A DNA stretch of 33,062 nucleotides from a virus (Duplodnaviria > Caudoviricetes), in IMG/VR virus record IMGVR_UViG_3300048856_000138, positions 1 to 33,062 of that record; one strand, written 5' to 3'. The notes under the pieces were generated by a model. It had not been told where the DNA came from. It was given only the letters and a program-made list of their open reading frames with translations, and did not search any database. Each line of letters opens with the position of its first letter. The first letter of the stretch is position 1. The translations under genes and the position numbers were made by a program. This document shows positions 1,674 through 29,102 of the stretch, piece by piece.

Positions 1674-2012
1674 GTGAATGATGCATCGTCACTCGCGTGG
1701 TTTGGCATGACCAGATTTCAGCTGGTCCAACGACTAAGACAGCTTGCTGATGAACTGGAGGTTTTCTCCATCTCCGTTAGCGCGCCAATCACCCGAATTG
1801 ACCACTGGAGCGTGGCAAGGCGAGGCGTTCCCTGCCTCATTGGCTTACCCACTTCCCATCCGACGATTCCCGACGGAGAGCCCCTCTATTCCAGCGAGCT
1901 GTACTACCTTGATCCCAACGAGCGTATCGCGCGTTCGTTCTCCCGCTGGTACGAACTCGGCGAGCAAGTTGAGCCGGGTTACTGGGAGCAGCGCTATCAG
2001 GTGCAGCGATGA
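1674..2012 (+). CDS. Conserved hypothetical protein (DUF6634-like)
   Basis: GTG start after a TAAGGAGG RBS. Motif 'CLIG...HP..PDG....SS.L...D.....ARS.SRWY.LG' recalled as DUF6634-like. Stop overlaps the next start (ATGA). Confidence 0.7.
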   Translation: MNDASSLAWFGMTRFQLVQRLRQLADELEVFSISVSAPITRIDHWSVARRGVPCLIGLPTSHPTIPDGEPLYSSELYYLDPNERIARSFSRWYELGEQVEPGYWEQRYQVQR

Positions 2013-2797
2013 GAGCTTGGATTTTCTCGGACCTCCATCTTGAAGTGGATGCAGGTTTTCGATTGATGGAGGTTCCTGACGCCGACGTTTGCATATGTGC
2101 TGGCGACATTCTCGATGGCGGTGTCGTCGCCAGTATCACGTGGCTAGGCGAACATGTCGCTCGCCACATGCCGGTCGTCTTCGTACCCGGAAACCACGAA
2201 TACTATCGAGCCTCGATAAAGGAGGGCCTGGCGAACGGATATAAGCTGGCAGAGGGCTACAATGACCTGTTTCTGCTGGATGGCGACTCCGTCATCCTTA
2301 ATGGCTACCAGTTTATCGGAGCAACTCTCTGGACCGATTTCGGTCTGCACAACGAGCCACGGTTGGCGATGAATATAGCTCGGGAAGAGCTCAACGACTA
2401 CCAGCGAATAAAACTCTCCAAGACCCCGTTCAAAAAATTTACGCCACAGGAGAGCCTACGCCTCCACCACGTCGCCGCCGTCGACATAGCCAACGTTTAC
2501 ACGACCCGGTCGAAAATGCCGACCGTGATCGTCAGCCATCACGCGCCGAGCATGCTGTCGGTTCCTCGGCATTTTTTAAAAGACGCCCTGACGCCATCAT
2601 TCGCGTCTCGGTTCGAGTATCGCATCCTCTCATATGAGCCACTGCTCTGGGTACACGGACATATCCACTCTCCGAGCGACTACATGATCGGGCAGACAAG
2701 AGTGGTATGCAATCCGCTCGGCTATCCGAGCGAGGACTCGCGGAGAACCTTCATTCCAAATCTGGTGGTCGACCTTGCAGAACTCGTCAAAGCGTAG
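2009..2797 (+). CDS. Metallophosphoesterase (calcineurin-like)
   Basis: Complete motif set: SDLH, AGD, PGNHEYY, SHHAP, HGHIH, NPLGY. Confidence 0.92.
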   Translation: MRAWIFSDLHLEVDAGFRLMEVPDADVCICAGDILDGGVVASITWLGEHVARHMPVVFVPGNHEYYRASIKEGLANGYKLAEGYNDLFLLDGDSVILNGYQFIGATLWTDFGLHNEPRLAMNIAREELNDYQRIKLSKTPFKKFTPQESLRLHHVAAVDIANVYTTRSKMPTVIVSHHAPSMLSVPRHFLKDALTPSFASRFEYRILSYEPLLWVHGHIHSPSDYMIGQTRVVCNPLGYPSEDSRRTFIPNLVVDLAELVKA

Positions 2798-4793
2798 CGG
2801 GCCTAGAGCCCAAAGCCATTCTCTGTGGAGGCTGGGCGACACGACCGGCCAGTCCAACGCGACCGTTCCGATCCATTTAGCATATTGCGGTATCGTGGCG
2901 GCGCTTCGGCACCATGTGAAAGTGAAAGCGTCAAGTCTCGCAGTCCTCGTTGTTGAGACCCCGGATGCGATCGACACCTTCGCTCACGCCGGCCGCCTCT
3001 TCCTTCGGCAAGCGCTGGGATCGAAAGGATACCATGAGCCGTTCGTCCAGGCCATCAAGCATAAGAAAAATGACAGGCCGACCGACCTTCATGTGTTCCG
3101 GCGCGCGGCCGAGGACGGCAAAGGAATTCTCCTGTGTTCACAACTCGACGACATCGATGAGGAGGTCAGGTTATTCGCAGATGTCGTAACGGCGATTCCG
3201 AAGCCGACACCGAACCAGATTACAGCGGTTTTCCGCAGGTACGGTCACGTCGTGACCCGAGAAGACGAAAAGATGATTGCATCTGAATCTTGGACGCGGT
3301 TGGTATATGCCTTCCAGCCCGATCGCCCCGTAATGGTCGGCCTGCGCCGTCTGCGGGAAACGGCGGCTCAGACGCCAGCGCTGAAAGCGACAACGCCTAC
3401 CAGCGGACCCACGCTTGAGGACCTCAGCGGCTTGGGTTCGGCGAGAGACTGGGGTCTTGAGCTTGCGCGCGATCTAGCCGATTTCAGGGCGGGCCTTGTT
3501 TCGTGGGATGACGTCGATACCGGCGCGCTGATATCCGGTCCGCCGGGAACCGGCAAAACGCTTTTTGCCGAGGCGTTGGCTCGGACCTGCGGCCTCCCGA
3601 TCGTGGTGGCGTCGGCCGCCCAATGGCAAGCCTGCGGCTACTTGAACGACCTTCTCAAAGCCATGCGGGAAAGTTTCAGGGAGGCGCAATCCCGCGGCAC
3701 GGCATTGTTGTTCATCGATGAACTCGACGCAATCGGAAGCCGAGCGATTAACGATAGTCAACACTCTGACTACAAGCGCCAGGTTATCAACGCATTGCTG
3801 GAATTACTTGACGGCTTCGACCGTCGCAGCGGGGTAGTCGTTATCGGCGCTACTAATCATCCGGAGAACATCGATCCTGCACTCCTGCGCCCTGGAAGGC
3901 TTGACCGCCATTTCGCCATATCCCTCCCCGATGCGACCACCCGTCAGCGAATATTTCAGTTCCACGCCAGCTTTACCGTTCCGTCCGACCAAGAGGACCA
4001 GTTCCAGCGTTCGACTGCGGGAATGTCTGGTGCTGGGTTGAAGCAACTCGTCAGGGATGGCCGCCGCGCCGCCCGCCGACAGGGTGCGCCGTTTGGGTTC
4101 GACCATATCGTCAAGGTCGCCAAGCCGCTGATTGATCTTCCCATGGAACATATGCGGGTGGCTGCGTACCACGAAGCTGGACATGCCATCGTCGGCATTC
4201 AAGTTGGTATGGAGCTTCAAGAGATCAGTATCAATGATAAGGTGTTTTCCGAAGGTGTTGATACTCTCGGTGGGACACAGTTCGCGACGCTGAGCTTTCC
4301 TATGAAGACAAGGTCTTTCTTCTTGGGTCACATAGCGATGTTTCTTGCTGGTCTCGCAGCGGAAACAATGGTCTTTGGCGAGTTCACGGAAGCGGCGACG
4401 GGCGATCCAAGATCGGATTTGGGCATTGCGACCGCGCTGGCAACTAAGGTCGAGGCCTGTTTCGGAATGGGGAGCACACTCGCCATAAACACTGTCGAGG
4501 AACGAGACTTGGGTCGGTTGCTTGGCACCGACCCGGTGCTCCGCGTAGCGGTCAGCCAACTCCTCGACAGCGAATTGAAGAGGGCGAAGGCAATTCTGGA
4601 ACTCCGGCACCGAGCGCTACACGCGCTCGCCGAATTTTTGATGGAAGCACGCCTCATGAGCTCCGCAGAGGTCATGAACGTTCTCGACAGATATCCTGCG
4701 GAAACCGGCCCCTTGGTGGCGGACGCCGACAGCCCGGGTTTCTCATCCGTGGCGCTCGACGCGGGTAGCCCGCAGGACCATCAATCAGGTTGA
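2775..4793 (+). CDS. Soluble FtsH-like AAA+ ATPase / M41 zinc protease
   Basis: Walker A GPPGTGKT, Walker B LLFIDELD, SRH 'ATNHPENIDPALLRPGRLDR', zinc motif HEAGH, 'LAGLAAE' and 'SDL..AT'. No obvious transmembrane helices. Start codon uncertain. Confidence 0.9.
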   Translation: MQNSSKRSGPRAQSHSLWRLGDTTGQSNATVPIHLAYCGIVAALRHHVKVKASSLAVLVVETPDAIDTFAHAGRLFLRQALGSKGYHEPFVQAIKHKKNDRPTDLHVFRRAAEDGKGILLCSQLDDIDEEVRLFADVVTAIPKPTPNQITAVFRRYGHVVTREDEKMIASESWTRLVYAFQPDRPVMVGLRRLRETAAQTPALKATTPTSGPTLEDLSGLGSARDWGLELARDLADFRAGLVSWDDVDTGALISGPPGTGKTLFAEALARTCGLPIVVASAAQWQACGYLNDLLKAMRESFREAQSRGTALLFIDELDAIGSRAINDSQHSDYKRQVINALLELLDGFDRRSGVVVIGATNHPENIDPALLRPGRLDRHFAISLPDATTRQRIFQFHASFTVPSDQEDQFQRSTAGMSGAGLKQLVRDGRRAARRQGAPFGFDHIVKVAKPLIDLPMEHMRVAAYHEAGHAIVGIQVGMELQEISINDKVFSEGVDTLGGTQFATLSFPMKTRSFFLGHIAMFLAGLAAETMVFGEFTEAATGDPRSDLGIATALATKVEACFGMGSTLAINTVEERDLGRLLGTDPVLRVAVSQLLDSELKRAKAILELRHRALHALAEFLMEARLMSSAEVMNVLDRYPAETGPLVADADSPGFSSVALDAGSPQDHQSG

Positions 4794-5620: not shown

Positions 5621-6010
5621 ATGGCGAAAACCAGGGTATTTATCAGCTTCGACTACGACCACGATTCTGACCTGAAGGTAATGCTTGCGGGTCAAGCGAA
5701 GCATTCCGATACACCGTTCGAATTTGCCGATTGGTCGATCAAGGAAGCAATCGATTCTAGATGGAAAGACAAGGCGCGGACACGTATCAGGTCTATCGAC
5801 GTGGTGGCAGTAATATGCGGGATGCACACGCATACGGCCACGGGAGTAAGCGCCGAGATTAACATTGCGCAGGAGGAATCCAAGCCGTATTTCTTGCTCA
5901 ACGGATATTCAGGAAAAACTTGCGTGAAGCCGTTACAGGCAAAAGTAACTGATAAGGTCTACGTCTGGACCTGGGACAACTTGAAGATTTTGATCAACGG
6001 TGGACGCTGA
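5621..6010 (+). CDS. thsB: Thoeris ThsB-like (MTH538-type) TIR domain protein
   Basis: 'RVFISFDYDHD', 'FADWSIKE', 'W....RTRIR', 'VICG.HT..A.GV..EI..A' with the catalytic Glu retained; GAGGAG RBS; TGATG coupling to the caspase gene. Confidence 0.9.
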   Translation: MAKTRVFISFDYDHDSDLKVMLAGQAKHSDTPFEFADWSIKEAIDSRWKDKARTRIRSIDVVAVICGMHTHTATGVSAEINIAQEESKPYFLLNGYSGKTCVKPLQAKVTDKVYVWTWDNLKILINGGR

Positions 6011-7002
6011 TGAAAAGGGCGCTGGTCGTTGGTATCGACGACTACCGGAAATATCCGCTCAGAGGCTGCGTCAACGATGCGATTGTCGTCGGCGGCCTCC
6101 TCGAGGCGAACGGCGACGGCTCGCCGAACTTCTCCGTCAGGATGCTGACCAGCAATGAGGAAGAAGTCACCACAGAACTCATACAGGACGCCCTGTCGGA
6201 GCTATTCGAAGGCGATGCCGAAACCGTTCTGTTCTATTTTGCGGGCCACGGGCTGATAAATGTCGAGTCTAATGCTGGTTACATCGTTTCTCAGGATGGA
6301 AAGAAGGGATCGTGGGGCGTTTCGCTCAGCGAGGTCCTTGCCATGGCCAACAAGGCTTACCCACTCATCAAATCAACGGTCATCATTTTGGACAGCTGTC
6401 ACTCCGGCTACGCGGGTGAGGTTGCAGGGCTTACTGCCGACGGGGCTTCGCTGATTGGGAACGGAGTCACGATCCTCACCGCCACCAATCGCTCTGGCAC
6501 GGCCGACGAAATCGGTGGCCATGGCGTCTTCTCGGAAATTCTTATAGACGCAATCCAGGGAGGCTCGGCCGACATATGCGGCCGGATAACTCCGGCATCC
6601 GTTTACGCGCATGTTGACCAAACCCTTGGCGCGTGGGGCCAGCGACCGGTCTACAAGGCTAACGTCCATACCTTCGTCGTCTTACGTTCCGTTGAGCCTA
6701 AGGTCCCGCTGCAGTCGCTGAGAAGGCTGCCTGAGTATTTTCCAGACCGTACGTCTACCTATCCGCTCGACCCGTCATGCGAGCCGAACAGAGGTCAAGA
6801 GACCGAGCGTCTCGCCGATGTGGCGGTCGATGTGTCCAAAGAACGCGTCTACCGCGAGCTGCAAACCTGCAACAGACACGGGCTGGTGAGCCCCGTCGGT
6901 TACGACCACATGTGGGAGGCCGCAATCAACTCGACGGGCTGTCGATTGACCGCTCTCGGAGCCCACTACAGACAGCTGGCGGAGAAAAAGCGTATCTTGT
7001 GA
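6010..7002 (+). CDS. Caspase-like protease (peptidase C14), type IV Thoeris-like effector
   Basis: 'KRALVVGIDDY...LRGCVNDA', catalytic His in 'FYFAGHG' and Cys in 'IILDSCHSG', 'G.F...L..AIQG..AD..G.IT', plus a C-terminal extension of about 100 aa. Confidence 0.93.
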   Translation: MKRALVVGIDDYRKYPLRGCVNDAIVVGGLLEANGDGSPNFSVRMLTSNEEEVTTELIQDALSELFEGDAETVLFYFAGHGLINVESNAGYIVSQDGKKGSWGVSLSEVLAMANKAYPLIKSTVIILDSCHSGYAGEVAGLTADGASLIGNGVTILTATNRSGTADEIGGHGVFSEILIDAIQGGSADICGRITPASVYAHVDQTLGAWGQRPVYKANVHTFVVLRSVEPKVPLQSLRRLPEYFPDRTSTYPLDPSCEPNRGQETERLADVAVDVSKERVYRELQTCNRHGLVSPVGYDHMWEAAINSTGCRLTALGAHYRQLAEKKRIL

Positions 7003-7100
7003 AGCTCTTCATTTCCCATCGGCGAGACAATCCCGCTGGTGGTCCCCAAGGTGGCTGCCCGTGTCAACGATATCAGACATAGAGAACATCAGCGATTTCC
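6999..7100 (+). pseudogene. Decayed second TIR gene (N-terminal remnant)
   Basis: GTG overlaps the caspase stop (GTGA) and reads MKLFISHRRDNP; a shifted frame continues LVVPKVAARVNDIRH. 'KxFISH' is the canonical TIR first strand. The frame closes early. Confidence 0.55.
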
Positions 7101-7257
7101 GTCGAATACGACCGGTTCGAGGTCTACCTCTCCACTCGCGTCCCGCAAGGTCGTCTAAACGAATAGCTGGATGCATCGTCAACACCGAACGGGTCAACGA
7201 CGACTGAGTATGTCAATCGATCAAACGTGACATCTTTGGGAAAGCGAGGTTGAACAG

Positions 7258-8673
7258 ATGATTGCGGAAACTTTGAATCGTGACTTCGTTTTGCGTCAGG
7301 CGGAGATCATACAGAAGCACATCCAATCGAGAAGTTCGCCGCTACGCCGCGGCCTTTCATCGCTGGGCACCGAGGTCGATGCCGCAGACCTTAAAGAAAC
7401 AGCGCAGCTGATCGAAGAAGCGATCAAAAACGAGAAATTCGCGGGACCGGCAGCCGTGATCGACAGCCAGCGCCGCGGCGACGGGATCGATGAGCGAAAC
7501 CAGGCCTTCATCAGCGGCGATCCGGTCATGAGCAATATCCAGAGCGCCTTGGAATTCTATTTCGACGACCCTGGTAGCATGGAAAATGCTTCGCCCCTGA
7601 GACCCTTCGTCGACAAACAACGCGGCGATCGACGCGGATACGTGGAGATGCCGATCGTCACAGATCGCAAACTTATTGGCATACCTACACCATCGCATGG
7701 GAAACGCCGGGTCTTTGATAAGTTTTCGGTATCCGACCCGGGCTGGGTCAGTTCTCTTGTCGCCATGGGTATCGCGCGCTTTAAAAAGCCTCATCCCTTC
7801 AACTCGGAGCCGGCCCCTACCGTAGTCGTCGGCGATATATGCAGGCTGATAGTGGTTGGCGACTGGGGAAGCGGGATTCCTCGCGCGCAGCGAAACGCAC
7901 TCGAGATGCGAAAGCATGTCGAGGCGTCGCTTGCGGAAGGTGCCGAATGCCACGTGGTCCACCTTGGCGACGTCTACTATTCGGGATGGGAATACGAGTA
8001 CCGGGACAGATTTCTTCCCTACTGGCCCGTAAAACCGGAGGAGCACGATAGGGTCGGCTCCTGGTGCCTTAATGGAAACCACGACATGTACTCGGGTGGC
8101 TTCGGGTATTTTGACTATCTGTTGGGCGACCCCCGGTTCGCCAGGCAAAGCAAGTCGAGCTTCTTCCGGCTCGCAAACAACCATTGGCAGCTCCTGGGTC
8201 TCGATACCGCGTGGGACGACAATGGCTTGAAGGACCCTCAATCGGACTGGGTTACGGCGATGACAATGGCGGACGGCCTCAAAACCGTGCTCCTCAGCCA
8301 TCATCAGCTTTTCAGCAGTCGGGAAAGCGGAGAGAACGTCGGCAAGGTTCTCAGGGCTAAGCTTGGCAGAGTCCTCGAAGCAGGGAAAATCGACGCCGCG
8401 CTTTGGGGGCATGAACACCGCTGCATGCTGTTCGAGCCTCACGAAAACGTCCGGTACGGTCGGCTGATCGGGCACGGAGGCGTGCCCGTTTATGCGGACA
8501 AAGGCGCTCTGCTAGCCCCGGCGTCATTTCAAGATATGGATTTCATCACGTCGAAGCTCGGCGAGCACTGGGCGTATATGGGCTTTGCAGTCTTGGACTT
8601 CGATGGCCCTTCCGTCGGCGTGCGATACTTCAACGAGAACGGGCGTCTTGATAAAAAGGAGGTTTTGATTTGA
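7258..8673 (+). CDS. Metallophosphoesterase (purple acid phosphatase/calcineurin-like) with long N-terminal extension
   Basis: GDWG, HLGDVYY, GNHD, LSHH and WGHEH motifs begin only after about 195 aa of N-terminal sequence. Confidence 0.9.
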   Translation: MIAETLNRDFVLRQAEIIQKHIQSRSSPLRRGLSSLGTEVDAADLKETAQLIEEAIKNEKFAGPAAVIDSQRRGDGIDERNQAFISGDPVMSNIQSALEFYFDDPGSMENASPLRPFVDKQRGDRRGYVEMPIVTDRKLIGIPTPSHGKRRVFDKFSVSDPGWVSSLVAMGIARFKKPHPFNSEPAPTVVVGDICRLIVVGDWGSGIPRAQRNALEMRKHVEASLAEGAECHVVHLGDVYYSGWEYEYRDRFLPYWPVKPEEHDRVGSWCLNGNHDMYSGGFGYFDYLLGDPRFARQSKSSFFRLANNHWQLLGLDTAWDDNGLKDPQSDWVTAMTMADGLKTVLLSHHQLFSSRESGENVGKVLRAKLGRVLEAGKIDAALWGHEHRCMLFEPHENVRYGRLIGHGGVPVYADKGALLAPASFQDMDFITSKLGEHWAYMGFAVLDFDGPSVGVRYFNENGRLDKKEVLI

Positions 8674-10589
8674 AAAAAACACGCCCCGAGATGACGCCGG
8701 AATTAGCTGAGGTCATCCGAAGATCAGAATTGCTGGCCAGGTCAGACAGACTTGACACGGCGCTGAGACTCCTAACCGAAGAGGCAAAGTCGGATACCGG
8801 CTTTGTCCTCGTCTACGCGACTCTCGTGGCTATCAGTGAGATGTTGCTTAAAAAGGGACAAACAGCGAAAGCAAAACAACTGGCTGCAGTGTCCCTCGCA
8901 GCATATATGAAACGGAAAGCCGATCTTGAAACCGTTTATGAGTTCCCCGAACTGCCAAAGTCCGGTTTTGGAACGCACAGCTATACCCCCGCCCCTAGCC
9001 GAAAGAGGTCAGTGCGAGCATCATCTAACAAGGGAATGCGGGTGGGGCGGGAAGACTACTTTGGTGGCTATCTGGCCGAACGCCTTTCCCCGGATATTGC
9101 TGGGTCCGACCCGACGGCGTACCTCACTCCGCATCTAGATATAACCCCCGCCGGTAGTCGTGACGACTTGATCGTCGTTGACGTCTATCTCGATAATCAT
9201 GATTTCGCAGCCGGTGAGTTCGGTGAGAAGGTCGGCGCCCCTCACGGAACCGAGGTGCTGGTCCAGCTTTTCACGACAAAACACTTTGAGATCGTGGGCT
9301 CGGGTGTCGCGACTTTCCTATTCGACAGCAAAGCCAAACGTATCGACATGGCAAGCTTTCACCTGAGAGTGGCAGCTGTTCCTGACGACGATATCACGTC
9401 GCCTGCAATAACGGCGCTTTTCTCAGTAAACGGGCGTCCGTGCGGGAAAATCGCTCGCTCGGTTAAATTCGATGGGACACCTGTAGAGATAGTCGCTTTG
9501 GCGGCGGTGGCTTTCAACGTGGAGCCCGCCGTCGTCGATCCTGCTAGTTTGACAGTGACCATAATCAGCAACCCCACAAACGATGGACGGCAATTCTTCT
9601 GCACGGTTTCATCCCCGCATCTGTCGGATATTGGGCCCTCCGACTGGAACCTCCCAAGCAGCGCCCAAAGCCTCGTCAGCGGATTCATGAACAAGTTCAC
9701 CGCGTCGACCAAAAGCTCCCAGATGATTGCCGAGCTTGTAGGAGCTGGAAAGCTCCTGTTCGAAGCTGCCCCGGAAAACTTCCGTCGCGCCTTTTGGGCA
9801 TTGATTGATGGAAACCGGCCCTTGACCAGCATCGCGATTGTCAGCGAGGAGGCCTATATTCCATGGGAGCTTATGGTCCCGACCCGACAAACAGCTGCGG
9901 GCTTGGAGGAAAGGGCGAATCCAATCGGGGTCGACTTTGCGATCGGTCGATGGATTCTCAAGGTGCAATCGCCGTCGCGGAAGATTTCGATCGATGAATC
10001 AATTGTGATCGCCCCCGAGTATGCCGGTGGCAACGTCTTGATAAACGCTCAGAAGGAAGCCGAACTTGTCTCGGGACAATTCCGAGGCCCGATAGTGCGT
10101 CCGGCGGACTTTGAGGCCGTCGCGCTTGCACTGGTGTCGAAATATTCGCTTCTTCATTTCGTGTGTCACGGCAAAGACAAAGCCTTGGACGGTCAGGCCA
10201 TCGACCTTGATGACAGCGACGAACTGACGACAGGGAACTTGAGAGGCATTGAAGGGATAGCGGCGGCTTTCCGGTCCAAGGCTCCAGTCGTTTTCCTCAA
10301 CGCCTGTGAAGTCGGCCGTGGCAGTCCAGCACTTGTAGGGCCGGGCGGCTTCGCTTCGCAATTCATTACGCTAGGCGCTAGAGCGGTCATAGCGCCGCTT
10401 TGGAGCGTGGAAGACTCAGTGGCCCACGACATAGCACTTGAGTTCTACGAGGCTTTAGAGCGTGATCCGACGACACCGCTTGCAAACATCTTTTCACGAG
10501 TGCGGGCCAAAGCGTACGTCCAAGGTTCAGGTAAGGACACTTATGCGGCTTACTGTTTCTTCGGCGATCCGTTGGCGGTGTTGAGCTGA
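8670..10589 (+). CDS. CHAT-domain (caspase/HetF clan) protease with N-terminal helical and beta-rich domains
   Basis: 'IPWEL', His in 'LLHFVCHG', Cys in 'VFLNACEVG', 'GARAVIAPLWSVEDSVA..IA..FY', 'AYCFFGDP'. TTG start overlaps the upstream stop, with an AGGAGG RBS. Confidence 0.92.
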   Translation: MKKTRPEMTPELAEVIRRSELLARSDRLDTALRLLTEEAKSDTGFVLVYATLVAISEMLLKKGQTAKAKQLAAVSLAAYMKRKADLETVYEFPELPKSGFGTHSYTPAPSRKRSVRASSNKGMRVGREDYFGGYLAERLSPDIAGSDPTAYLTPHLDITPAGSRDDLIVVDVYLDNHDFAAGEFGEKVGAPHGTEVLVQLFTTKHFEIVGSGVATFLFDSKAKRIDMASFHLRVAAVPDDDITSPAITALFSVNGRPCGKIARSVKFDGTPVEIVALAAVAFNVEPAVVDPASLTVTIISNPTNDGRQFFCTVSSPHLSDIGPSDWNLPSSAQSLVSGFMNKFTASTKSSQMIAELVGAGKLLFEAAPENFRRAFWALIDGNRPLTSIAIVSEEAYIPWELMVPTRQTAAGLEERANPIGVDFAIGRWILKVQSPSRKISIDESIVIAPEYAGGNVLINAQKEAELVSGQFRGPIVRPADFEAVALALVSKYSLLHFVCHGKDKALDGQAIDLDDSDELTTGNLRGIEGIAAAFRSKAPVVFLNACEVGRGSPALVGPGGFASQFITLGARAVIAPLWSVEDSVAHDIALEFYEALERDPTTPLANIFSRVRAKAYVQGSGKDTYAAYCFFGDPLAVLS

Positions 10590-10591
10590 TG

Positions 10592-11071
10592 TCAGTCGGT
10601 GTCGCGAACAGCGCGCGTGATCGGGTCAATGATGGTCACCGGAACCGAGCTATCACGGGCGTACTTCACGATATCGGCCGTCCCACCGAAGCCTCGGGAG
10701 CGTTCTCCGTCCCAGATGGCGATCAATCGGTCCACATTTTGCACAATGAAACACCCGGCGTCGAAAAACGCCTGTTCCGGTTTATTTCCGGAGGCCATCT
10801 CTATCGCCTGACATTTCGTAAGCATTTTTCGATAACGAAGAAGTGCGTTAGCCGCAAAAAATCGTTCGTAGTCGGAGATAGGTATTATGGCAACGACGGT
10901 CCCGCCACGATCCAGCATCGCCTCGGCAAACACCTGATCACTCCCTTCTGCAAGGGACGAGTAGCCTTCCAAAGGCGCAGACAGGCGATCAAGGTTCAGA
11001 TCGACCTGCTGACGAACCCAGTGCCAGTCGATGCCGACCCGCTTCTGATGGCCCGTTACTCCAACCTTCAT
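10592..11071 (-). CDS. Stand-alone SLOG superfamily (YspA/DUF1273-like) nucleotide-binding protein
   Basis: 'VGVTGH', 'SSLAEGSDQVFAE', 'D.LIAIWDG....GFGGTADIV.YA....VPV..I'. Start at ATG 11071 with a GGAGG RBS; the ORF track starts at 11092. Confidence 0.88.
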   Translation of the reverse strand: MKVGVTGHQKRVGIDWHWVRQQVDLNLDRLSAPLEGYSSLAEGSDQVFAEAMLDRGGTVVAIIPISDYERFFAANALLRYRKMLTKCQAIEMASGNKPEQAFFDAGCFIVQNVDRLIAIWDGERSRGFGGTADIVKYARDSSVPVTIIDPITRAVRDTD

Positions 11072-11297
11072 CGGTGCCTCCCCTCGTTCCATAAGCGTTC
11101 TCGCCGGCGACAGGGCGAAGTCGGCACGAGATACGCCTCAAAACGCACTCCAACATATCCACGAGATATCGCTTTCAGGCCATCTTACAAGTTTTTTGAA
11201 TTGGAGCAGGGCACTGCATAGTCTATCGTCACGCAATGGAAGTCCCACCGTCCTGGACCAGAAGATCAGAGGCGGGGCATATTTAGGCAGCCGCTCC

Positions 11298-12203
11298 GTG
11301 GAATCATATCTCGAAATTGCTAAGCGGATATTGCGCGAAGCCAGGCGACCATTGACGGCGAAGGCTATGCTGGACGCTGCCTATCGCGCTGACATCGTCC
11401 CACCACACCTTCACGGCAAGACGCAGCATAAGACGCTCCAGGCGAGGCTCAGCGAAGATATCCTCAAGAACAAGCGGAATTCTGTCTTCTATCGCACGGA
11501 ACCGGGGTATTTTTTCCTGACTGAATTTCAGAGCGATCCCTTAATACCCGAGAAGTTCAGGGTGCCGTTCCCCGCAAGGCGGCGTACTCGCGACCTCTCG
11601 CGCGGACCGATCCTAGCAATGCTGAATTCGCCCAATATCGACTGCGGCGAAGGAGATCGCTGGCTTGATGAGGCAATAGCGAAAGGCCTACTACTGTATG
11701 CGGACCCCAAGGACGCCTCCCCCGACATCGTCTTCCTCTGGACGTTTGCGATGGTCGTCCGCGGCGACCAAGTCCTCTCATATCGTGTCGGCCGTTACCG
11801 CGACGATCGTGACAGCTTCGCTAACAAGCGCACCGTTGGCTTCTCCAACGTCGTCCACGCTGACTACCGGACCTTTTTCAACCAGGATGATTACGGGATC
11901 ATGGAAAGTGCTACGACAGCAGTCCTAACTGATCTCGATATCTCCAATTCCTTCGAAATTTTCAACGGCGACGGCGTAAGGCCTACGATCCAGTCCGTAT
12001 GCGTCTCTCACCAGCACGGCAAGTCGCCGGCATATGTGGCCTTCATCCGCCTGACCTGTCCCGAATGGTTCGAGCCGACGAGCCGCAGGCTCTCACTCAA
12101 CGACCTTCGATGGCTCGACGTAACGACGACGCCCAATCACCTCGAGGACTTCGATCCATGGTCGCAGGTGGCCCTGGAGCGTCGATACGCCCAAGCGGTT
12201 TAA
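11298..12203 (+). CDS. HARE-HTH (winged helix) domain fused to a NUDIX-like fold domain
   Basis: N-terminal 'SYLEIAKRILREARRPLTAKAM....GKTQHKTLQARLSEDI....S.FYRT.PG.F.L' is HARE-HTH. C-terminal 'VVRGDQVLSYR...KRTVGF' resembles predicted NUDIX phosphoesterases with a degenerate Nudix box. GTG 11298 preferred over TTG 11196. Confidence 0.78.
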   Translation: MESYLEIAKRILREARRPLTAKAMLDAAYRADIVPPHLHGKTQHKTLQARLSEDILKNKRNSVFYRTEPGYFFLTEFQSDPLIPEKFRVPFPARRRTRDLSRGPILAMLNSPNIDCGEGDRWLDEAIAKGLLLYADPKDASPDIVFLWTFAMVVRGDQVLSYRVGRYRDDRDSFANKRTVGFSNVVHADYRTFFNQDDYGIMESATTAVLTDLDISNSFEIFNGDGVRPTIQSVCVSHQHGKSPAYVAFIRLTCPEWFEPTSRRLSLNDLRWLDVTTTPNHLEDFDPWSQVALERRYAQAV

Positions 12204-12218
12204 GCTGGGTTCGACACA

Positions 12219-13895
12219 TTGAAACCCCCGATCGATCCTATTTACGCTCAGTTTCTGAAGATGGAGCTGGAGTCCGGTGAACCCCGCCGGATAAAAGTCG
12301 CGTTGCAGGAAATCTGCCGTCAATACCGCCGCGGCTCAGGCCTCCGCGAACCCATCAAGACGAACATCGAGACCATAATATCTGGCCTGTTGATAAGGGT
12401 AAGCCAGGACATGAAAGTTGTTCGCTGGTGCCTGAATGCAATCGCGCAGTTCGGTCGCAAAGACTACAGCCTCAATGGCGTGCTGCAGTCGATCGAGACT
12501 CACCGAGACAATCCAGAAATTGCCGGGTCCGCAGTCGCAGCGCTCTTCAAAATCGATAGCAAGACCTTGAAGGACGCCAACAGGATCACCGTGTTGCCGC
12601 GCGAGATCATAGCGCTTGGCGCCCTCCAAAACACCCATCCAAGCCGGCTGGATTTAACGGGGGTCCGCATCAATATCGAACGAGCAGCGCCCGACGTCCT
12701 GAAACTGGCGTTGATCACGGTCGGAATCGACAAGGCTGTCGAAAACCTGTTCGATCCGAAATTCACGAACCAGCAAATCGTGCAGGCCCTTGGAAAGCAC
12801 GACGATGCGATCGTGAAGCAATACAGCGTGTGGGCTATTCTTGAGAACTCACTGCTGTCAGCCGCCGACCTCGGCGTCGACCTTACCAATCTTGATCGCG
12901 AGCCGGTCAACGTCCGCGCGAAGGTGTATAGCCTCCTGGCGGCGGAGAACGGAGATGTCAAGCGACGACACGAGTTCATCCTCCAGGGGTCGGACGATCT
13001 TGAGGCCGAGGCTAGGAGCGGCTTGGCCAGTACGTTGAAGGATGTCTGGTATGACAGCCTCGATACCGTGACCGTCCCTTGGTACGAAGACGAAACCGAT
13101 CCTATAGTGCGCGAGGGACTTCTGGATCACTTCGCGAAATTCGCTGGCGATTCTCCAAGCTATGAGGAAATCGCGGTCGAGGCTTTCAAGACAAATCCCG
13201 CTGTCCGCGATCGTCTATACGGCATGGCAGCTGGAAAACCCCTTTATGGACGGTTCAAAAGAATCGATCTCGCAGGAGAGACACCGAACCTCTTCAAAGA
13301 GGACGGCTTCCAACAGGAAGGCAGCCATAGAAAAACGCCTGCCATGAAGATTCTGATGCTCGGCGCGAGCCCTGCGGACGAAGAAGTCCTACGAGTCAAC
13401 GCCGAGAACAGGGAAATCAAGCGCCAGATCGAAAGCATCGGAGAACGCCCGTTGCAGATAGACACGGAATTTGCTGTCAGGGTTTCCGATCTGCAAAGGC
13501 ACATGCTGAAAGCAAAACCAACTATTCTTCACTTCAGTGGCCACGGCGACACTGGAAGCTGGCTCGTTTTTGAGGATGATGGAGGCAATGCCTACCCCGT
13601 TGAACCGGACGCGCTCGCCGATTTGATGAAAATATTCAAAAGCGAATTGCAGTGCGTGGTGCTGAATTGCTGTTACTCGAATGCGCTGGCCGAGGCGATT
13701 GCAAAGCATATCCCGATCGTCATAGGCTGCGACGGTTCCGTCGTCGACAGCGCGGCGACATCGTTTTCCGTCGGGTTCTATCGCGGCCTGGCTAGCGGTA
13801 AAGACTTCAGCCAGTCTTTCGAACTCGGCGTAAATGAGATCAACCTGACTTCAGACAGGTCGTTGTCTGAAATGTACAGAATTCACAAACGCTGA
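12219..13895 (+). CDS. HEAT/ARM-like helical repeat protein with C-terminal CHAT protease domain
   Basis: About 370 aa of helical repeats ('D.KVVRWCLNAIAQFG', 'DDAIVKQYSVWA'), then 'KILMLGASP....LRV..E.REI', 'ILHFSGHG' (His), 'VVLNCCYS' (Cys), 'FS.GFY.GLASG'. Confidence 0.9.
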   Translation: MKPPIDPIYAQFLKMELESGEPRRIKVALQEICRQYRRGSGLREPIKTNIETIISGLLIRVSQDMKVVRWCLNAIAQFGRKDYSLNGVLQSIETHRDNPEIAGSAVAALFKIDSKTLKDANRITVLPREIIALGALQNTHPSRLDLTGVRINIERAAPDVLKLALITVGIDKAVENLFDPKFTNQQIVQALGKHDDAIVKQYSVWAILENSLLSAADLGVDLTNLDREPVNVRAKVYSLLAAENGDVKRRHEFILQGSDDLEAEARSGLASTLKDVWYDSLDTVTVPWYEDETDPIVREGLLDHFAKFAGDSPSYEEIAVEAFKTNPAVRDRLYGMAAGKPLYGRFKRIDLAGETPNLFKEDGFQQEGSHRKTPAMKILMLGASPADEEVLRVNAENREIKRQIESIGERPLQIDTEFAVRVSDLQRHMLKAKPTILHFSGHGDTGSWLVFEDDGGNAYPVEPDALADLMKIFKSELQCVVLNCCYSNALAEAIAKHIPIVIGCDGSVVDSAATSFSVGFYRGLASGKDFSQSFELGVNEINLTSDRSLSEMYRIHKR

Positions 13896-14039
13896 TACCA
13901 GATATGCCGTCTGTCTATCCAGAAGCTGCGAGTGGACCGGTTCCCGTTCGATTCGAGTGACAGGCTGTGTTGAATCGCCGTCAAGTTGCCGCCTCTCCGG
14001 CGATCGCTGATAAATACCGGTAGTGGCTCATAATGACGC

Positions 14040-15185
14040 TCATCGCAATTCCGAGACGAGGATCAGCGTATCAACGTCGATCCCTTTCGCAGCCCTTATT
14101 TCGATGAGGTCCGGTTCGCCCGGCAAAGCTTGTTCGATCATTTCCCGAGCCTGCGCGACCGCATGACCGACGGACTGTGCGCCACCGATAGCGGAGTAGA
14201 AATGCCCGGCGAAAAGGCTGGCAGACAAGTCCGCGACCGAATCCGGCATCGCGATCAGAACCGGCACCGCTTCGAGCAACACCGCGGCCCCTTCGAGTGA
14301 CCGGCAAGCGTTGAGTACAAGCAGCGTAGGAGGGAAGTTCGTAGCTTCCAGAATACGGCGTAGCCGGGTGAAATCCATCATCTGCCCGATCGGCGTCTCG
14401 ATCAACGCGTCGTCGAAGAGCAGTCCGTCGCCGTTACCATGCCCTGAGAAATGGATGACGTGCGGTCTTAGGTCGTTCAACCCATTGAGGAGGTCTTCCG
14501 GCGTTGCCGCTGGCCTGTGGTGAAGCTCGATCAGGTCACGGTGCTTGACCGATCGCATTCGTTTGAGGACATTGTTCACCTCGGCATCCACTCTAAGTGG
14601 ATCATCAAGGTTAGGGCTCGAGGTGAGATAGAGGACTCTCAGCTTCTCCGGCTCCGGCTGGCGTTCGATTATATGCCGTACGGTAAACATGGAAAGGCGA
14701 CCTATTTCGCGGGCGTGGCTTTTCTCGGTCTGCCGCCGTCGAGCATCGTCTCGGCTGCGTGCGTCCGCCTCCGACTTCTCCTTGCGTTTTCTCGCGTCAT
14801 CACCCCGCGCAAGCTTGTCACGTTCGGCTTTTTCCTCTCGTTTGGCCTGCTTTTCCTTCCGTTCAGCCTCCCCGCGCTCGCTCTTTAGGGCGGATGTGAG
14901 CCTTGCCTCCGCTTTTTGCTGCTTGGAAACAACCGCCGCTACTTTGCCCTGAAGGTCAGCGATCTTTCTCTCGGCAACGGCGGCTTTGTTTCGCTCCCCC
15001 TCCGCCGCCTTCGTATATGAGCTGCGAGACGACGCAGAGGAGGACCTAGCTGCCAACGCAGCCTTCTTTGAAGACTCCGAACGCGCCTTAGATGAGATAG
15101 AGATTTGGGCAGCGATGTCCTTCTGGAGTTTCGCCAAATCTGTCTGAAGCCGAGCCAGCTCGCTCCTATAAGTGGTTGATCCCAT
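14040..15185 (-). CDS. Coiled-coil protein with C-terminal CHAT protease domain
   Basis: K/E/R/A/S-rich heptad N-terminus, then 'LRVLYLTSSP....LRVDAEV', 'VIHFSGHG' (His), 'LVLNACRS' (Cys). Likely start ATG 15185; the ORF track extends to 15272. Confidence 0.9.
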   Translation of the reverse strand: MGSTTYRSELARLQTDLAKLQKDIAAQISISSKARSESSKKAALAARSSSASSRSSYTKAAEGERNKAAVAERKIADLQGKVAAVVSKQQKAEARLTSALKSERGEAERKEKQAKREEKAERDKLARGDDARKRKEKSEADARSRDDARRRQTEKSHAREIGRLSMFTVRHIIERQPEPEKLRVLYLTSSPNLDDPLRVDAEVNNVLKRMRSVKHRDLIELHHRPAATPEDLLNGLNDLRPHVIHFSGHGNGDGLLFDDALIETPIGQMMDFTRLRRILEATNFPPTLLVLNACRSLEGAAVLLEAVPVLIAMPDSVADLSASLFAGHFYSAIGGAQSVGHAVAQAREMIEQALPGEPDLIEIRAAKGIDVDTLILVSELR

Positions 15186-15390
15186 CGAGTCTGCCGCCCG
15201 ATCTTCTTCCGATGCTTCGTCGGACTTAGGTGGGCTTTCTTCTGCGTTCGTCAACTGCGCAAACCTTGTCAAGGCGGCTCGATCCCACAGACGTACCCCG
15301 GATCAAGCGATATTTCGGCCCACCGAAATCAGCGGGGCGCCGTCGGGCTGCATTTCCTCAACGTGACTTTCCGCCAGCCAGCCCCTAGCG

Positions 15391-15770
15391 TTACGCCTCT
15401 CTCTCGGCATTGGACCGAAAGACCAGCTCCATTAGAATTCCTCCAGCCGTGTGCACGAATAGCCGCCGCTCGTACAAATCAGGTAGGTCCATTGTTTGAT
15501 AGCGGATGCCGAGGCGATCCAGCTTGCCTCGCGTGCCCGAGTAATCATCCATTCGGAAGCCCGCGTGGTCCAGCATTTCCGCGCCCCAGGGGGGCATTTC
15601 ACCATCGCCGGGAATGAGGTGGATTATCGGGTCCGACCCTTCATAGAGCCAGTACCCGGGAAACGAGAACGGCGGCTGATAGCCGACGGTTACCCCGAGG
15701 AGTGCCTCAAGAAAAAAGCGCGTGTCGCCTCGATATCGCTTGTACGGAACGTGACGTGGTCGATATTCGA
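15391..15770 (-). pseudogene. Frameshifted VOC/glyoxalase family gene
   Basis: 'NIDHVTFRTSDIEATRAF' then a frameshift at a T6 run (15712-15717), continuing 'LEALLGVTVGYQPPFSFPGYWLY...IIHLI...LDHAGF...GILMELVF'. Confidence 0.85.
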
Positions 15771-16114
15771 CGCTTGATCATCGTGTTTTCTGGCAAGGCT
15801 TCGTTCCAGGGCCTGGCACCGGTCTTTGCGCCCGAGGTAACTAAATGCGTATTGGCTTGGCGTGGTTGGCACGCTAACTAAAACGCTGGCGAGATCGTAC
15901 GTCGCCGTTAGCCTACGTTGAGCATATCCTCTGCAAAAAGCATCGGGTGAAGAACCAGTCGCTATCAAACAAGTATCCGGATACCGTTTTCGAAAAAGCC
16001 GTTGCATAATTTCTAGTAGTCTATACCCTAATATCACGGATGGCTGGAAGCCATGCGCGAGACGGGTTGGATACTCAAAGCTTACATTGCAGAGAACATC
16101 GGCCATGGTCGATG

Positions 16115-16165
16115 AAATCCGCCTTTGATCCCACAACAATTTGTTGTTGGATCAAAGGCGGATTT
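16115..16165. repeat. 51-bp near-perfect palindrome followed by T-tracts
   Basis: AAATCCGCCTTTGATCCCACAACAA-T-TTGTTGTTGGATCAAAGGCGGATTT: 25-bp arms, one mismatch, 1-nt centre. Confidence 0.9.
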
Positions 16166-16243
16166 TTTTTCGAATTTTTTTCAGGCTGGGGGCTGTCTGC
16201 CCTAAGACCCCCGAGGATAAGAAACAGGTTAGGACTAAGGGGG

Positions 16244-18427
16244 TCAAAATGACTCCTTCTGTTTTTGTGGAAAAGCTGCCAATACGTGAGAACAGTTCTC
16301 GCCGTCGCTCCAGATCGTCAGGTCGTCTGGAAAGGCAGGAGACGACCGCGCGTCCCAGGTCCAGACGAACACACGATCCGGATCGACCATGCCGGCGGGT
16401 GCCGCCTCGCCCTGCCACCAGCCATGATGCGCTTCGAGGAACCGTCGCTGCTGGCTGTCGGATCGTCCGCCGGACGAGAAATACGGCAGGCTGCTTTCCA
16501 CCGATTTCGGATCGACAAACACATTCGGCTGGTTGGCGCCCTTGTCGACAGCCGGGCAACCCAGTTCGGTAAACCAGATCGGCTTCATCCCGGGCAACCA
16601 GGCAGTCGCCGCCGCACTCTCCACGCCGCCCACCCGGTTATAGTGACGGTTGCCCCACCAGCCCTCGAGATCCTTGGCGCGATACACCCAGGGCTTGCCC
16701 GCCGACCCGTCCGTGATCGGCGAGCGCAACCGGTTCGCTCGGTCGGCGTCGCTTGCATAATACCAGTCGAAGCCCTCGCCCGCCGCAATCTGCGCCGCCA
16801 TCGCCGCCCGGTCGTCGCAGGACCGGAACCCATCCGGATTTGCCGCCGCCAGATCCCCGTCGCGCCAGTCGGCGAGCGGCATGTAATTGTCGATCCCGAC
16901 CGCATCGATATGAGGCGAGGTCCAGAGCGGATCGAGATGAAACAGCACATCGCCTGTGCCATCCTGCGGGTGGTAGCCGAAATACTCGCTCCAGTCGGCG
17001 CCATAGGTCAGCGCTGTCGCCGGTCCGACAAGCGCCCGCACATCCGATGCCAAAGTCACCAGCGCCTCGACAAACGGAAACGCACCGGTCTGATCGCGGA
17101 TCTGCGTCAGCCCCCGCAGTTCCGATCCGATCACCAGCCCGTCGACGCCCCCGGCCGTACTGGCGAGCCCCGCATAGTGCAGAACCATCCGCCGATAGCC
17201 GTCCGCCCCGTTGGCAAAAGCCTCGACCTGCGTCCTCGCAACCGCGGTCCTGTCGGCAGTCCCCGCCAGTGCCGCTGCCGGATGACAGGTGATCCGCCCG
17301 CGCCAGGGATAGCTCGCCTGCTCCGCCTCACCATAGGGATCGGCCAGACCATTGCCCGGCGCGATGTCCATCATCACGAACGGATAGAGAAAGACCTTCA
17401 GCCCACGCGCCTTGAGATCCGCGATCGCAGCCAGCACGCTCGCGTCCCCAGGCGTGCCGCCATAGGCCGGGCCGCCTCCCGACGAACTGACGCGATGCGC
17501 CGCGCTTCTGACCACCCCGGCAACCGACCATGCCGTACTCTCGTCACGCCGCGTCTCCACCTCGACACCCGGCAGAATGCGGCATTGCCCGGCACGCAGA
17601 TCCGTCCCGAACCAGGCGACGACCAGCGCCACGCTTTCAAGATTGGGGCAGAGCGCCTGCAGTTCGTCGAGCGACGCCTGCCAGTCGGTCTCAGCCACCA
17701 TCGTATTGCGGTTGAGAATGCGGGCGCTGCCCTCCGCCGTCTTCTCGGTCACCTGAACCGTGTGATAGCCATGCTCGGTCGCGCCGGGAATGATCGTCAC
17801 CGCCCGGATCTGTGTCTCTAGCGTCCCGACCGGCCGCACCACCTCGAACTGCAGCAGCGGAATGCGGTTGCCGAACGGCTCCAGCGGCAACCGGTCGAAC
17901 ACGACATAGGCGAGCCCGCGATAAGCCGGCGCATGACCTTCGCCCTGCTTGGCCTCGATCAGCGGATCCGGCAACTGCGTCTCGTCGCCGACATGAGCGC
18001 GCATCTCGATCGCCGTCAGGTCCAATTCCTGGCCATCGGCCCAGACGCGCCGCACGCAGGCGATCGGCCCCTCGCAGAGCCCGACCGCAAAGCTGGCGAA
18101 ATACTGAAACGTTTCCGTCTGAGACCCGCCCGTCGCCTTGCCACCGCTCCGCTCCCGCGTTGCCTCCTCCTCGAAACGCGTCGCCCAGATGAGCGTGCCC
18201 CCGATCCTTGAGGTGCCATAAACCCGGGTGACCGGCGCCCCTTCGTCCGCCCCCGGAATACGCGCCGTCGCGAGCCTCGCGCCCGAGACTGTCGAGGAAC
18301 CGCCGAGCAGTGCCCGATCGACGACGCTCCCCGCCAACGCCCCCGCCGCCCGCCCGAGGATCGCCCCGACAGGACCGAATACCCCGCCAAGTGCTGCGCC
18401 CGCCGCCTGAAACAGGATCGTCGCCAT
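16244..18427 (-). pseudogene. GTA baseplate multidomain protein 'megatron' (g15), 3'-truncated
   Basis: 'MATILFQAAGAALG', 'PAYRGLAYVVF', GTA TIM-barrel motifs 'YGADWSEY', 'IDNYMPLADWRDG', 'KPIWFTELGC', 'WTWDAR'. Sequence diverges after 'WSDGEN' and stops at 727 aa, whereas intact homologs are about 1300 aa. Confidence 0.9.
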
Positions 18428-18519
18428 AAAAACCCCTCACGCCGCCCCAGTCGTGAACCGGATGCGCGCTCATGTTGTGGATCTATCGGATTTTGGGTGG
18501 GAGGTGGCTGCCTCCTCGG

Positions 18520-18590
18520 TGGCGGCCCCTCACCCTAACCCGCTCGCGGGGAGAAGGGACCGCAGGACGCAGCCGGATGAGAGGCACGCA
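18520..18590. repeat. Degenerate rhizobial intergenic palindromic (RIME-like) repeat
   Basis: 'CCCCTCACCCTAACC...GCGGGGAGAAGGGAC...GCCGGATGAGAGGC' resembles common Rhizobiaceae repeat motifs; related sequence at about 25930-25992. Confidence 0.5.
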
Positions 18591-18749
18591 AGCCCACACA
18601 TCCGCCACCTAGATACCCGCTAAAATTGTGATACCGTATCGGCGTTTGGAAACAGAATGCAGCACGCGCCGAGCCAGCCGGCGCACTGGCGGAGATGGGC
18701 TCCGCCAGCTTAGGCAGGGAGCCTTGTTTCCAACCATGGAGGTGATGTC

Positions 18750-18839
18750 ATGAGGCTTTGGCCAATTGGCATGGCGCTTATCGTGAGGGTGACCCGGACG
18801 GGCTGGTCAGTGTCCGTCCGGATCTCATTCGCTAGATAA
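18750..18839 (+). CDS. Unannotated 29-aa hydrophobic/basic small peptide
   Basis: GGAGGTG RBS, then MRLWPIGMALIVRVTRTGWSVSVRISFAR; structured leader upstream and hairpin downstream. Confidence 0.6.
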   Translation: MRLWPIGMALIVRVTRTGWSVSVRISFAR

Positions 18840-18845
18840 GCAATC

Positions 18846-18875
18846 TGATGGGTGGGGTTCCAGCCCCATCCATCA
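18846..18875 (+). terminator. Stem-loop after the small ORF (possible bidirectional terminator)
   Basis: TGATGGGTGGGGT-TCCA-GCCCCATCCATCA, 13-bp stem including G-U pairs; no U-tail. Confidence 0.5.
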
Positions 18876-18907
18876 CTCCATGACTATACTCCGGTCATCG
18901 CCAAGTT

Positions 18908-19351
18908 TCAACCATCCCTTGCCGGCGGAAACCGGTGCACGGCAGCGATTTTGCGGCGCCAGGAGGGCACCAGAACCGAGCGTGTCACCGCCACCTGCTC
19001 GTAGGCATGAATGAAATACGACGGCCCAACGAATATACCCGCATGCTTCACCATCGTGTCCGACCGCCAGCGAAACAGCAGCAGATCGCCGGATTGCATC
19101 TGCCCGAGGCCAAGTGCCGGTCCGAACAACCGGATGCCAGCGTCCAGCAGCCTGTCCTCGCCGCCCCGTTCTGCCCAGTCGCGCGCATAGGGCGCCACCG
19201 GTTCCAGCTCCACGCCGTAAAGCTCCCGCCAGATGCCGCGGATCAAGCCTATGCAATCGCAGCCGATGCCGCGCGTTGCGCCCTGATGCCGATAGGGCGT
19301 GCCGATCCAGCTCTCTGCCACCGCGACGATCCGCTCTCCGGCGGCGCTCAT
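18908..19351 (-). CDS. GTA NlpC/P60 cell wall peptidase (g14)
   Basis: 'SWIGTPYRHQG....GCDCIGLIRGIWREL', 'KHAGI', 'FIHAY'; syntenic position. Confidence 0.95.
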   Translation of the reverse strand: MSAAGERIVAVAESWIGTPYRHQGATRGIGCDCIGLIRGIWRELYGVELEPVAPYARDWAERGGEDRLLDAGIRLFGPALGLGQMQSGDLLLFRWRSDTMVKHAGIFVGPSYFIHAYEQVAVTRSVLVPSWRRKIAAVHRFPPARDG

Positions 19352-20858: not shown

Positions 20859-20867
20859 CGCTGCCCC

Positions 20868-21404: not shown

Positions 21405-21509
21405 GGCATCCGCTCCCGTTCAAATTTCGCCGATCCGCCGACTTGCGGCAGGCAAGAACAATGCTAGATTGCATTATTCATCGTCACTCCTTATGATGGA
21501 GGAAGCCAG

Positions 21510-22280: not shown

Positions 22281-22293
22281 AGCGCAAGGTGCA

Positions 22294-22859: not shown

Positions 22860-22879
22860 GAAATCCCCCTTTCATGCTC

Positions 22880-27312: not shown

Positions 27313-27328
27313 GTCCTGTCCTTCTCTG

Positions 27329-29089: not shown

Positions 29090-29102
29090 GACGATCTCCA
29101 TC

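Follow-up and report, generated by a model that had tools for sequence, protein, structure and literature searches.

The DNA analysed here, an IMG/VR provirus record (IMGVR_UViG_3300048856_000138; its full 33,062 nt are called the window below), encodes a metallophosphoesterase (MPE) and a CHAT protease in two overlapping genes. We propose, with moderate probability and on the basis of sequence comparisons and structural models, that the pair is a zymogen of the purple acid phosphatase (PAP) type activated by its CHAT protease. As judged from the same comparisons, the conserved linkage of the genes and the candidate cleavage sites in segments predicted to be disordered match protease-activated zymogen defence modules. 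The protease–effector logic is already known; what is new here is the effector type and what appears to be a readable cleavage code.

The initial annotation of this locus had described the genes as coupled, and both features on which it relied are confirmed: the TTG start codon at 8670–8672 overlaps the TGA stop codon at 8671–8673, and an AGGAGG lies at 8657–8662, 7 nt upstream of the TTG. The protein database uses a later ATG as the start of CHAT, giving 632 residues. Single-sequence searches of the PDB returned nothing for MPE and one weak match for CHAT, and NCBIfam has no match for either protein.

A phosphatase core behind an arginine-marked arm

The proposal that MPE carries about 190 extra N-terminal residues is right, because the Pfam Metallophos match starts at residue 196 and the structural match at residue 192. 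Our search scored 8000 candidates and found 2419 relatives, of which the 120 listed were analysed as homologues; at least 98% of the query is covered in 118 of these 120, and the N-terminal arm is therefore a family trait. The closest named homologues come from Rhizobium, Agrobacterium, and Bradyrhizobium, and no hydrophobic N-terminal signal is visible in the MPE sequence.

An AlphaFold2 model of MPE, built from a 40-sequence alignment (pTM 0.86), has human PAP 2bq8 (TRAP) as its best Foldseek match (E 1.8e-13). In VIA, the alignment with mammalian PAP reaches Z 25.4 with a root-mean-square deviation of 3.1 over 258 residues; mammalian PAPs fill the top eight rows of both searches, and a profile search matches 1war with E 1.7e-12. 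PAPs are defined by the motifs DxG, GDxxY, GNH[DE], VxxH, and GHxH, which bear seven metal ligands (PMC2553084). All five are present in MPE, as D202xG, G237-D-V-Y-Y241, G273-N-H-D, L345xxH348, and G384-H-E-H387, the Val of the fourth motif usually being replaced by Leu in this family. Six ligands are kept in all 120 homologues and H348 in 119. By modeled fold and by ligands, MPE is thus a PAP-type enzyme, closest in fold to human TRAP.

What would such an enzyme do? The initial annotation had named a phosphatase, a nuclease, or a nucleotide-degrading effector. The fold and ligands narrow this choice to a PAP/TRAP-type phosphatase and make a nuclease less likely, with Mre11 at Z ~15 in VIA against ~25 for PAPs, so that the nuclease reading was ranked below the phosphatase. 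Because of the PAP match, the seven ligands, and the far lower score of Mre11, our best guess from sequence and model is a broad phosphomonoesterase or NTPase. In mammals, TRAP is found in macrophages and osteoclasts, and it is said to become an ATPase upon activation. It is latent until cut, is activated by proteolysis, and is rather unselective toward its substrates (PMC7081696). TRAP (ACP5) thus resembles MPE as the closest solved fold, in its five ligand motifs, and in being itself an enzyme switched on by a protease; it differs in that cathepsins cut an internal loop of ~20 residues, whereas here the candidate sites occupy an N-terminal arm of 190 residues and the protease gene is adjacent.

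The arm is modeled as four helices (residues 8–25, 42–61, 89–103, and 161–176) parted by four low-confidence segments, with pLDDT below 50 at residues 30–36, 65–81, 123–128, and 145–158, and it has no named family in the ESM Atlas. All four Arg-Arg (RR) sites of the arm (Table 1) sit inside these four segments; a further motif, RG, occupies residues 122–123. The first three sites are predicted cut sites, and the doublet at 150–151 is possibly a fourth cut site or a docking motif. RR occurs in three or four of the arm windows in 116 of the 120 homologues. RRG was counted 199 times in the N-terminal 153 residues of the 120 homologues, against 12.1 ± 3.3 in shuffles (16-fold), and 46 times against an expected 2.8 among 26 representatives sharing less than 62% identity. 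Lysine is no substitute: loops 2 and 3 together contain 271 RR, as opposed to 7 RK, 6 KR, and 7 KK. The repeated basic motifs reported for the arm are therefore present beyond chance, but the conserved unit, as read from the alignment, is an RR doublet followed by G or S and not the RG first put forward. Readings of RR 150 as a Tat signal and of the arm motifs as RNA-binding RGG elements were rejected on their internal position and acidic context.

The core presents the opposite picture. RRG was found there once among the 120 homologues, against 18 in shuffles, a depletion that is not significant in the 26 representatives (1 versus 3.6). Of 156 dipeptides, Arg-Gly shows the strongest depletion in the core (32 observed, 252 expected), and the representatives retain the effect, with 7 observed against 54 expected and a minimum of 33 in 500 shuffles.

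The partner protease and its linkage to the phosphatase

CHAT matches Pfam PF12770 with E 6e-16 and carries His500 in HFVCHG and Cys546 in NACE, both invariant in 120 of 120 CHAT homologues. Its best Foldseek match is Csx29 (E 2e-11), the separase fold being matched as well, and VIA places it with Csx29/separase-like structures at Z 23.6 and a root-mean-square deviation of 4.0 over 305 residues. On this evidence from sequence and model, CHAT is a clan CD, separase/Csx29-like protease with an intact His/Cys dyad, in agreement with the multidomain protease originally described. The ESM Atlas names no family for its beta domain, the look-alikes falling below the naming bar.

All 30 CHAT homologues compared share two acidic residues, D582 and E463, and D582 follows Cys546 by 36 residues. 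In human separase, Asp2070 of the S1 pocket follows Cys2029 by 41 residues (PMC10317155), and D582 may be its equivalent, by spacing rather than by alignment. An Asp at a similar place in the other two CHATs of the window indicates that D582 is not specific to this subfamily. We infer a specificity for arginine because of the RR motifs in the partner. A predicted complex of CHAT residues 146–639 with full-length MPE scored 0.02, which supports neither side.

The basic linker singled out in the initial annotation, RKRSVR, is present at CHAT residues 111–116, but the linker is variable and the motif is not conserved as such; RR[GSA] occurs in the linker of 68 of the 120 homologues. RRG is likewise enriched in the CHAT N-termini, with 48 observed against 15 expected. 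The length of the N-terminal part differs widely across homologues (0–570 residues), and TIR, cold-shock, kinase-like, and hydrolase parts occur in it; this variable region is likely to be the input of the module.

How firmly are the two genes tied to each other? Among the best 80 of 130 GTDB loci on the MPE side, CHAT lies directly downstream of MPE in 14 of 17 non-actinobacterial loci; of the remaining three, one stops at MPE, with a different CHAT upstream, and in two the DNA downstream is short and gave no match. The actinobacterial loci include one with CHAT upstream of MPE and 62 without CHAT. True CHAT partners score E <1e-190, and no full-length member of the CHAT subfamily was found in any of the 38 (incomplete) genomes behind CHAT-less loci. 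Seen from the CHAT side, the best 80 of 224 metagenome loci contain MPE in 50 cases, are cut short upstream in 23, and have none detected in 7. The co-occurrence implied by the initial annotation is borne out by 32 of 39 informative CHAT groups (80% identity) that contain MPE and by eight full-length natural MPE–CHAT fusions. The order MPE then CHAT is kept in 33 of 36 dereplicated pairs, and pairwise identities of the two proteins correlate (Spearman 0.58, 0 of 2000 permutations, 37 pairs including that of the window). Neighbour clustering revealed no third gene common to most loci, and the viral collection held six remote MPEs with no CHAT match in those loci. One ORF (L149:4939–6696) opens with the N-terminal helices of MPE and continues as CHAT-like sequence, no MPE core being detected; it is a deletion or an assembly error.

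Relatives that differ in their protease provide natural contrasts. For a quick tree, 117 full-length open reading frames (ORFs) were dereplicated at 85% to 71 representatives, partial and frameshifted ones being dropped. RR[GS] is found in 35 of 36 CHAT-labelled rows versus 5 of 35 unlabelled rows; of those five, two have a CHAT that escaped the domain profile, two come from near a contig end, and the fifth is actinobacterial. RR[GS] is missing from 30 of the 31 actinobacterial CHAT-less rows, of which 30 form one clade and one is a long branch. These relatives (L017–L080) lie near genes for GMC oxidoreductase, acetoacetate decarboxylase-like, and arginine deiminase proteins. On plasmid NZ_MK318989.1, an MPE with no adjacent CHAT has its doublets reduced to single RG and is preceded by a caspase 62% identical to that of the window. 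In other cases (L111:3610–4998, L113:4420–7551, P0222), the same CHAT subfamily is next to, or fused with, a DUF7379 alpha/beta-hydrolase in place of MPE. In three of three related sequences, this hydrolase has two RR motifs before its core, and the core itself is free of RR[GS].

Remoter PAP-like MPEs from the genome samples adjoin protease genes of other classes in four of six cases, three trypsins and one papain, and may represent sister modules. Those at L182, L183, L186, and L188 have a helical N-terminal part, and two also flank a class 3 lipase. Fusion to a trypsin, caspase, S8, or GMC oxidoreductase domain is seen in other remote relatives (GMC oxidoreductase in P0273 and P0274). A remote relative with ~30% identity over residues 129–462 occurs in 126 Ralstonia records, with no annotation among the matches listed, and another (L175:3970–5079) lies on a viral contig beside Gp23 capsid and prohead protease genes.

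A proposed zymogen and its competitors

We propose the following model. CHAT would cut MPE after R31, R73, and R126, perhaps also after R151, yielding pieces of ~3.7, 4.4, 5.9, and 2.8 kDa and a core of 36–39 kDa. Removal or loosening of the arm would open the active site of MPE and thereby turn the enzyme on. With less confidence, we suggest that the freed MPE would act as a broad phosphomonoesterase/NTPase with an Fe(III)-tyrosinate site, and that it may drain nucleotide or phosphoprotein pools until the cell arrests. The activated MPE would probably be an anti-phage effector. On a broader scale, we tentatively consider it possible, if not to be expected, that bacteria have here a new class of immune zymogen, namely a cytoplasmic PAP freed by a CHAT that reads an arginine-doublet code, the code having been acquired independently by the DUF7379 hydrolase, and the module standing, in some islands, below a TIR–caspase step as part of a multi-protease cascade.

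That the module serves defence is likely. The module is rare. With the centre genomes set aside, samples from the order (400 genomes), the family (400), and a second phylum (300) yielded no full-length MPE, and the family sample yielded no CHAT either. In a survey of 26 hand-picked loci, in which 133 of 148 picked ORFs were scanned with Pfam, conflict-type neighbours accompany 14.

Several observations weigh against the zymogen model or against a role in defence. Two RR-bearing loci have no CHAT within the 1.1 and 1.5 kb that remain to the contig end, and their incomplete genomes (one of them G003) contain no full-length member of the CHAT subfamily. Four of the eight fusions, which have a divergent CHAT with intact dyad, are without RR doublets and have at most single RG. 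As read from the tree, the actinobacterial contrast counts as one or two events because the CHAT-less relatives form one clade and one long branch, and before dereplication one KRRG was present in 10 of 59 CHAT-less actinobacterial loci. The same relatives retain the arm helices, and the 18 ORFs scanned around them are metabolic or unmatched and include no endoprotease of the partner classes; an arm kept among metabolic genes in the absence of CHAT need not, therefore, inhibit. The correlation between MPE and CHAT identities could reflect co-evolution or shared descent alike. Among the 21 MPE-bearing loci of the survey only nine have conflict-type neighbours, and neither protein has a match in PADLOC. 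The pro-enzyme idea of the initial annotation stands in part: the pair is conserved and at times fused, and RR tracks the protease, but the arm alone, given the CHAT-less relatives, is no evidence of a prodomain.

Which protease reads the doublets? The competing explanation that survives best, though we think it unlikely, is that another arginine protease, such as the Thoeris-like caspase encoded just upstream, cuts or primes the pair, which would then be a downstream amplifier running from a TIR signal through the caspase to the CHAT linker and the MPE arm. Cleavage by the caspase of type IV Thoeris occurs after Arg, small neighbouring residues being slightly favoured (10.1101/2024.10.24.620036); the TIR–caspase pair of the window, a possible upstream activator, ends 255 nt before the start of MPE. 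A caspase related to that of the window is found close to the pair in 4 of 59 CHAT groups and on plasmid NZ_CP039902.1, and a protease cascade therefore stays under consideration; the caspase that precedes a CHAT-less MPE on NZ_MK318989.1 and the RRG enrichment of the CHAT N-termini point in the same direction. In most groups, however, the caspase is missing within the 6–7 kb fetched, a protease that recognises a single Arg would leave the selection for doublets unexplained, and the caspase of type IV Thoeris is on its own a sufficient effector (10.1101/2024.10.24.620036).

It is also conceivable, if rather unlikely, that the module is a protease-gated phosphatase for stress or developmental signaling in soil bacteria and has no anti-phage role. 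About half of the examined MPE-bearing loci have only housekeeping or unknown neighbours, and the blank in PADLOC and the metabolic surroundings of the CHAT-less relatives would suit such a role; the very patchy distribution across the sampled order, family, and second phylum does not, nor does the setting, which in the window is an island of lower GC content carrying TIR, caspase, and SLOG genes and on a conjugative plasmid is a similar island.

Cleavage might, alternatively, run in the opposite sense. If a cut at RR inactivated MPE or lifted a brake, the full-length phosphatase would dampen a nucleotide or phosphorylation signal or hold CHAT as a pseudosubstrate, and the protease would be the effector. 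Pseudosubstrates of clan CD proteases are known, namely securin (PMC10317155) and the arginine loop of the gingipain prodomain (PMC4357240), and 7 of the 39 informative groups have CHAT with no MPE detected. We nevertheless consider this improbable: the catalytic core avoids RR and RG, as it should if it has to outlast the cut, and the same layout recurs in the unrelated DUF7379 partner. That the motifs are Tat export signals, nucleic-acid-binding patches, or compositional noise in genes that are merely linked is very improbable, since RRVFDKF (residues 150–156), which we take to resemble the Tat consensus and which precedes a mildly hydrophobic helix, lies 150 residues from the start with acidic residues after it, the median net charge of the arm is −6, and the 16-fold enrichment over shuffles is strictly for Arg.

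Should the zymogen model hold, a PAP-type phosphatase/NTPase would be a new kind of immune output, bacterial relatives of TRAP would be given a function, and the freeing of a PAP by CHAT would mirror the activation of mammalian TRAP by cathepsins. With its predicted sites (R31, R73, R126, and R151), the H500/C546 dyad, and the metal ligands, this two-gene system is open to direct test, and natural variants that have no RR or another protease are ready controls.

Known systems and the surrounding island

To our knowledge, the protease-activated immune effectors of bacteria have so far been nucleases, pore formers, a hydrolase, and transcription regulators. The closest parallel is a caspase of Lysobacter capsici that cuts its alpha/beta-hydrolase partner at two R/G sites (Evans et al., PMC12642450). 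Both modules consist of two linked genes with a clan CD protease that is fused to varied domains among its relatives, and both have several conserved Arg-containing sites in the partner, Arg-Gly in partner loops in the case of L. capsici (PMC12642450). They differ in that the effector here is of the PAP type, a CHAT bearing an Ig-like domain takes the place of the C14 caspase, and the sites are RR doublets in an N-terminal arm and not sites within the enzyme fold.

The same paper lists a protease-associated 'MPE' module as uncharacterised, citing Krishnan et al. 2020 (NAR gkaa726); like the present pair, it links a metallophosphoesterase to a protease, and it may be this family, the trypsin- or caspase-linked relatives, or another family. 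The term 'MPE' does not occur in the available parts of two supplements of Evans et al. (PMC12642450). The remark that no named system has this pair thus holds in so far as no description of a CHAT–PAP pair was found in the literature compared, which lay outside Krishnan et al. 2020 and related computational work, but protease-associated MPEs had already been listed. The portions available of PMC12799240, PMC7159879, PMC8195603, PMC12419801, PMC4357240, 10.1101/2023.06.23.546230, and PMC12287305 describe no such pair.

The nuclease–protease pairs and canu of Tuck et al. (PMC12799240) share with our model a pro-enzyme gated by disordered segments, sister clades with different protease classes, and Ig-like domains, there in a caspase; their effector is a metallo-beta-lactamase-fold DNase, whereas ours is a calcineurin-fold PAP, and the available main text of that paper mentions no CHAT, phosphatase, or phosphoesterase. 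Craspase (Csx29/Csx30), SAVED-CHAT/PCaspase, and separase have in common with the present protease the CHAT fold with its His/Cys dyad; unlike them, CHAT here lacks a SAVED domain and a long TPR array, is not accompanied by a CRISPR effector, and has another predicted substrate. Neither CRISPR effector genes nor a SAVED domain was detected among the 22 window proteins scanned with Pfam or the 12 scanned with PADLOC.

Table 1. Positions of the gene pair, its parts, and neighbouring genes in the window
Feature	Position	Strand	Basis or conservation
MPE gene, 471 residues	7258..8673	+	ORF list; Pfam PF00149
N-terminal arm of MPE, residues 1–191	7258..7830	+	AlphaFold2 model
RRG 30–32, predicted cut site 1	7345..7353	+	RR in 69/120 homologues, then mostly G or S
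RRG 72–74, predicted cut site 2, best-conserved RR(G/S)	7471..7479	+	RR in 115/120, then G in 76, S in 19
RRG 125–127, predicted cut site 3	7630..7638	+	RR in 107/120, then G in 70, S in 17
RR 150–151, followed by V/I/L-F-D	7705..7710	+	RR in 119/120; missing from the CHAT-less actinobacterial clade
PAP catalytic core, residues 192–471; ligands D202, D238, Y241, N274, H348, H385, H387	7831..8670	+	
Coupling of the genes: ribosome-binding site AGGAGG, TTG/TGA overlap	8657..8673	+	sequence
CHAT gene, 639 residues counted from TTG	8670..10589	+	ORF list; Pfam PF12770
CHAT layout: helical N-terminus 10–86, disordered linker 100–145, Ig-like beta domain 149–265, protease region ~290–639	8670..10589	+	model
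ThsB-type TIR and caspase pair (type IV Thoeris-like)	5621..7002	+	PF08937, PF00656; PADLOC ThsB and caspase matches
SLOG gene	10592–11092	−	Pfam
HARE-HTH gene	11196–12203		Pfam
Helical-repeat CHAT	12219–13895		Pfam
Coiled-coil CHAT	14040–15272	−	Pfam

The window falls into two halves. The left half has a GC content of 53–59%, and the right half, from ~16.2 kb, of 60–67%. The right half encodes head, portal, tail, and baseplate proteins, one of which matches the gene transfer agent (GTA) model GTA_megatron. Within this head–tail cluster (16244–33062), a baseplate ORF of 727 residues aligns to just 745 of the 1299 positions of the GTA baseplate model and, because of this, seems to be cut short at the island edge. 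According to Pfam, the left half contains a second metallophosphoesterase with an FtsH-like ATPase, the ThsB-type TIR and caspase, MPE and CHAT, SLOG and HARE-HTH genes, and two further CHATs. We infer that this half is not phage cargo but an accessory island adjoining a GTA-like cluster. A scan of the locus for promoters and terminators stayed at chance level.

Eight of the island genes (5621–15272: TIR, caspase, MPE, CHAT, SLOG, HARE-HTH, and both extra CHATs) recur in a different order on NZ_CP039902.1 at 10699–25350, where the SLOG, HARE-HTH, helical-repeat CHAT, and coiled-coil CHAT counterparts beside the same pair are 42–49% identical. NZ_CP039902.1 is a conjugative Ti plasmid, and its island adds extra TIR, S8, and CHAT genes. 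The eight-gene island may be a larger multi-protease system. At 11196–15272, the HARE-HTH gene is coupled to the helical-repeat CHAT, which is convergent with the coiled-coil CHAT, and Pfam has no match for the long C-terminal part of the HARE-HTH protein. Further to the left, at 2009–4793, the short second metallophosphoesterase (PADLOC PDC-S10, E 2e-10), unrelated to MPE, overlaps the FtsH-like AAA ATPase, which has an M41 peptidase domain; the island thus holds another phosphoesterase–protease pair, one whose phosphoesterase has no RR motif.

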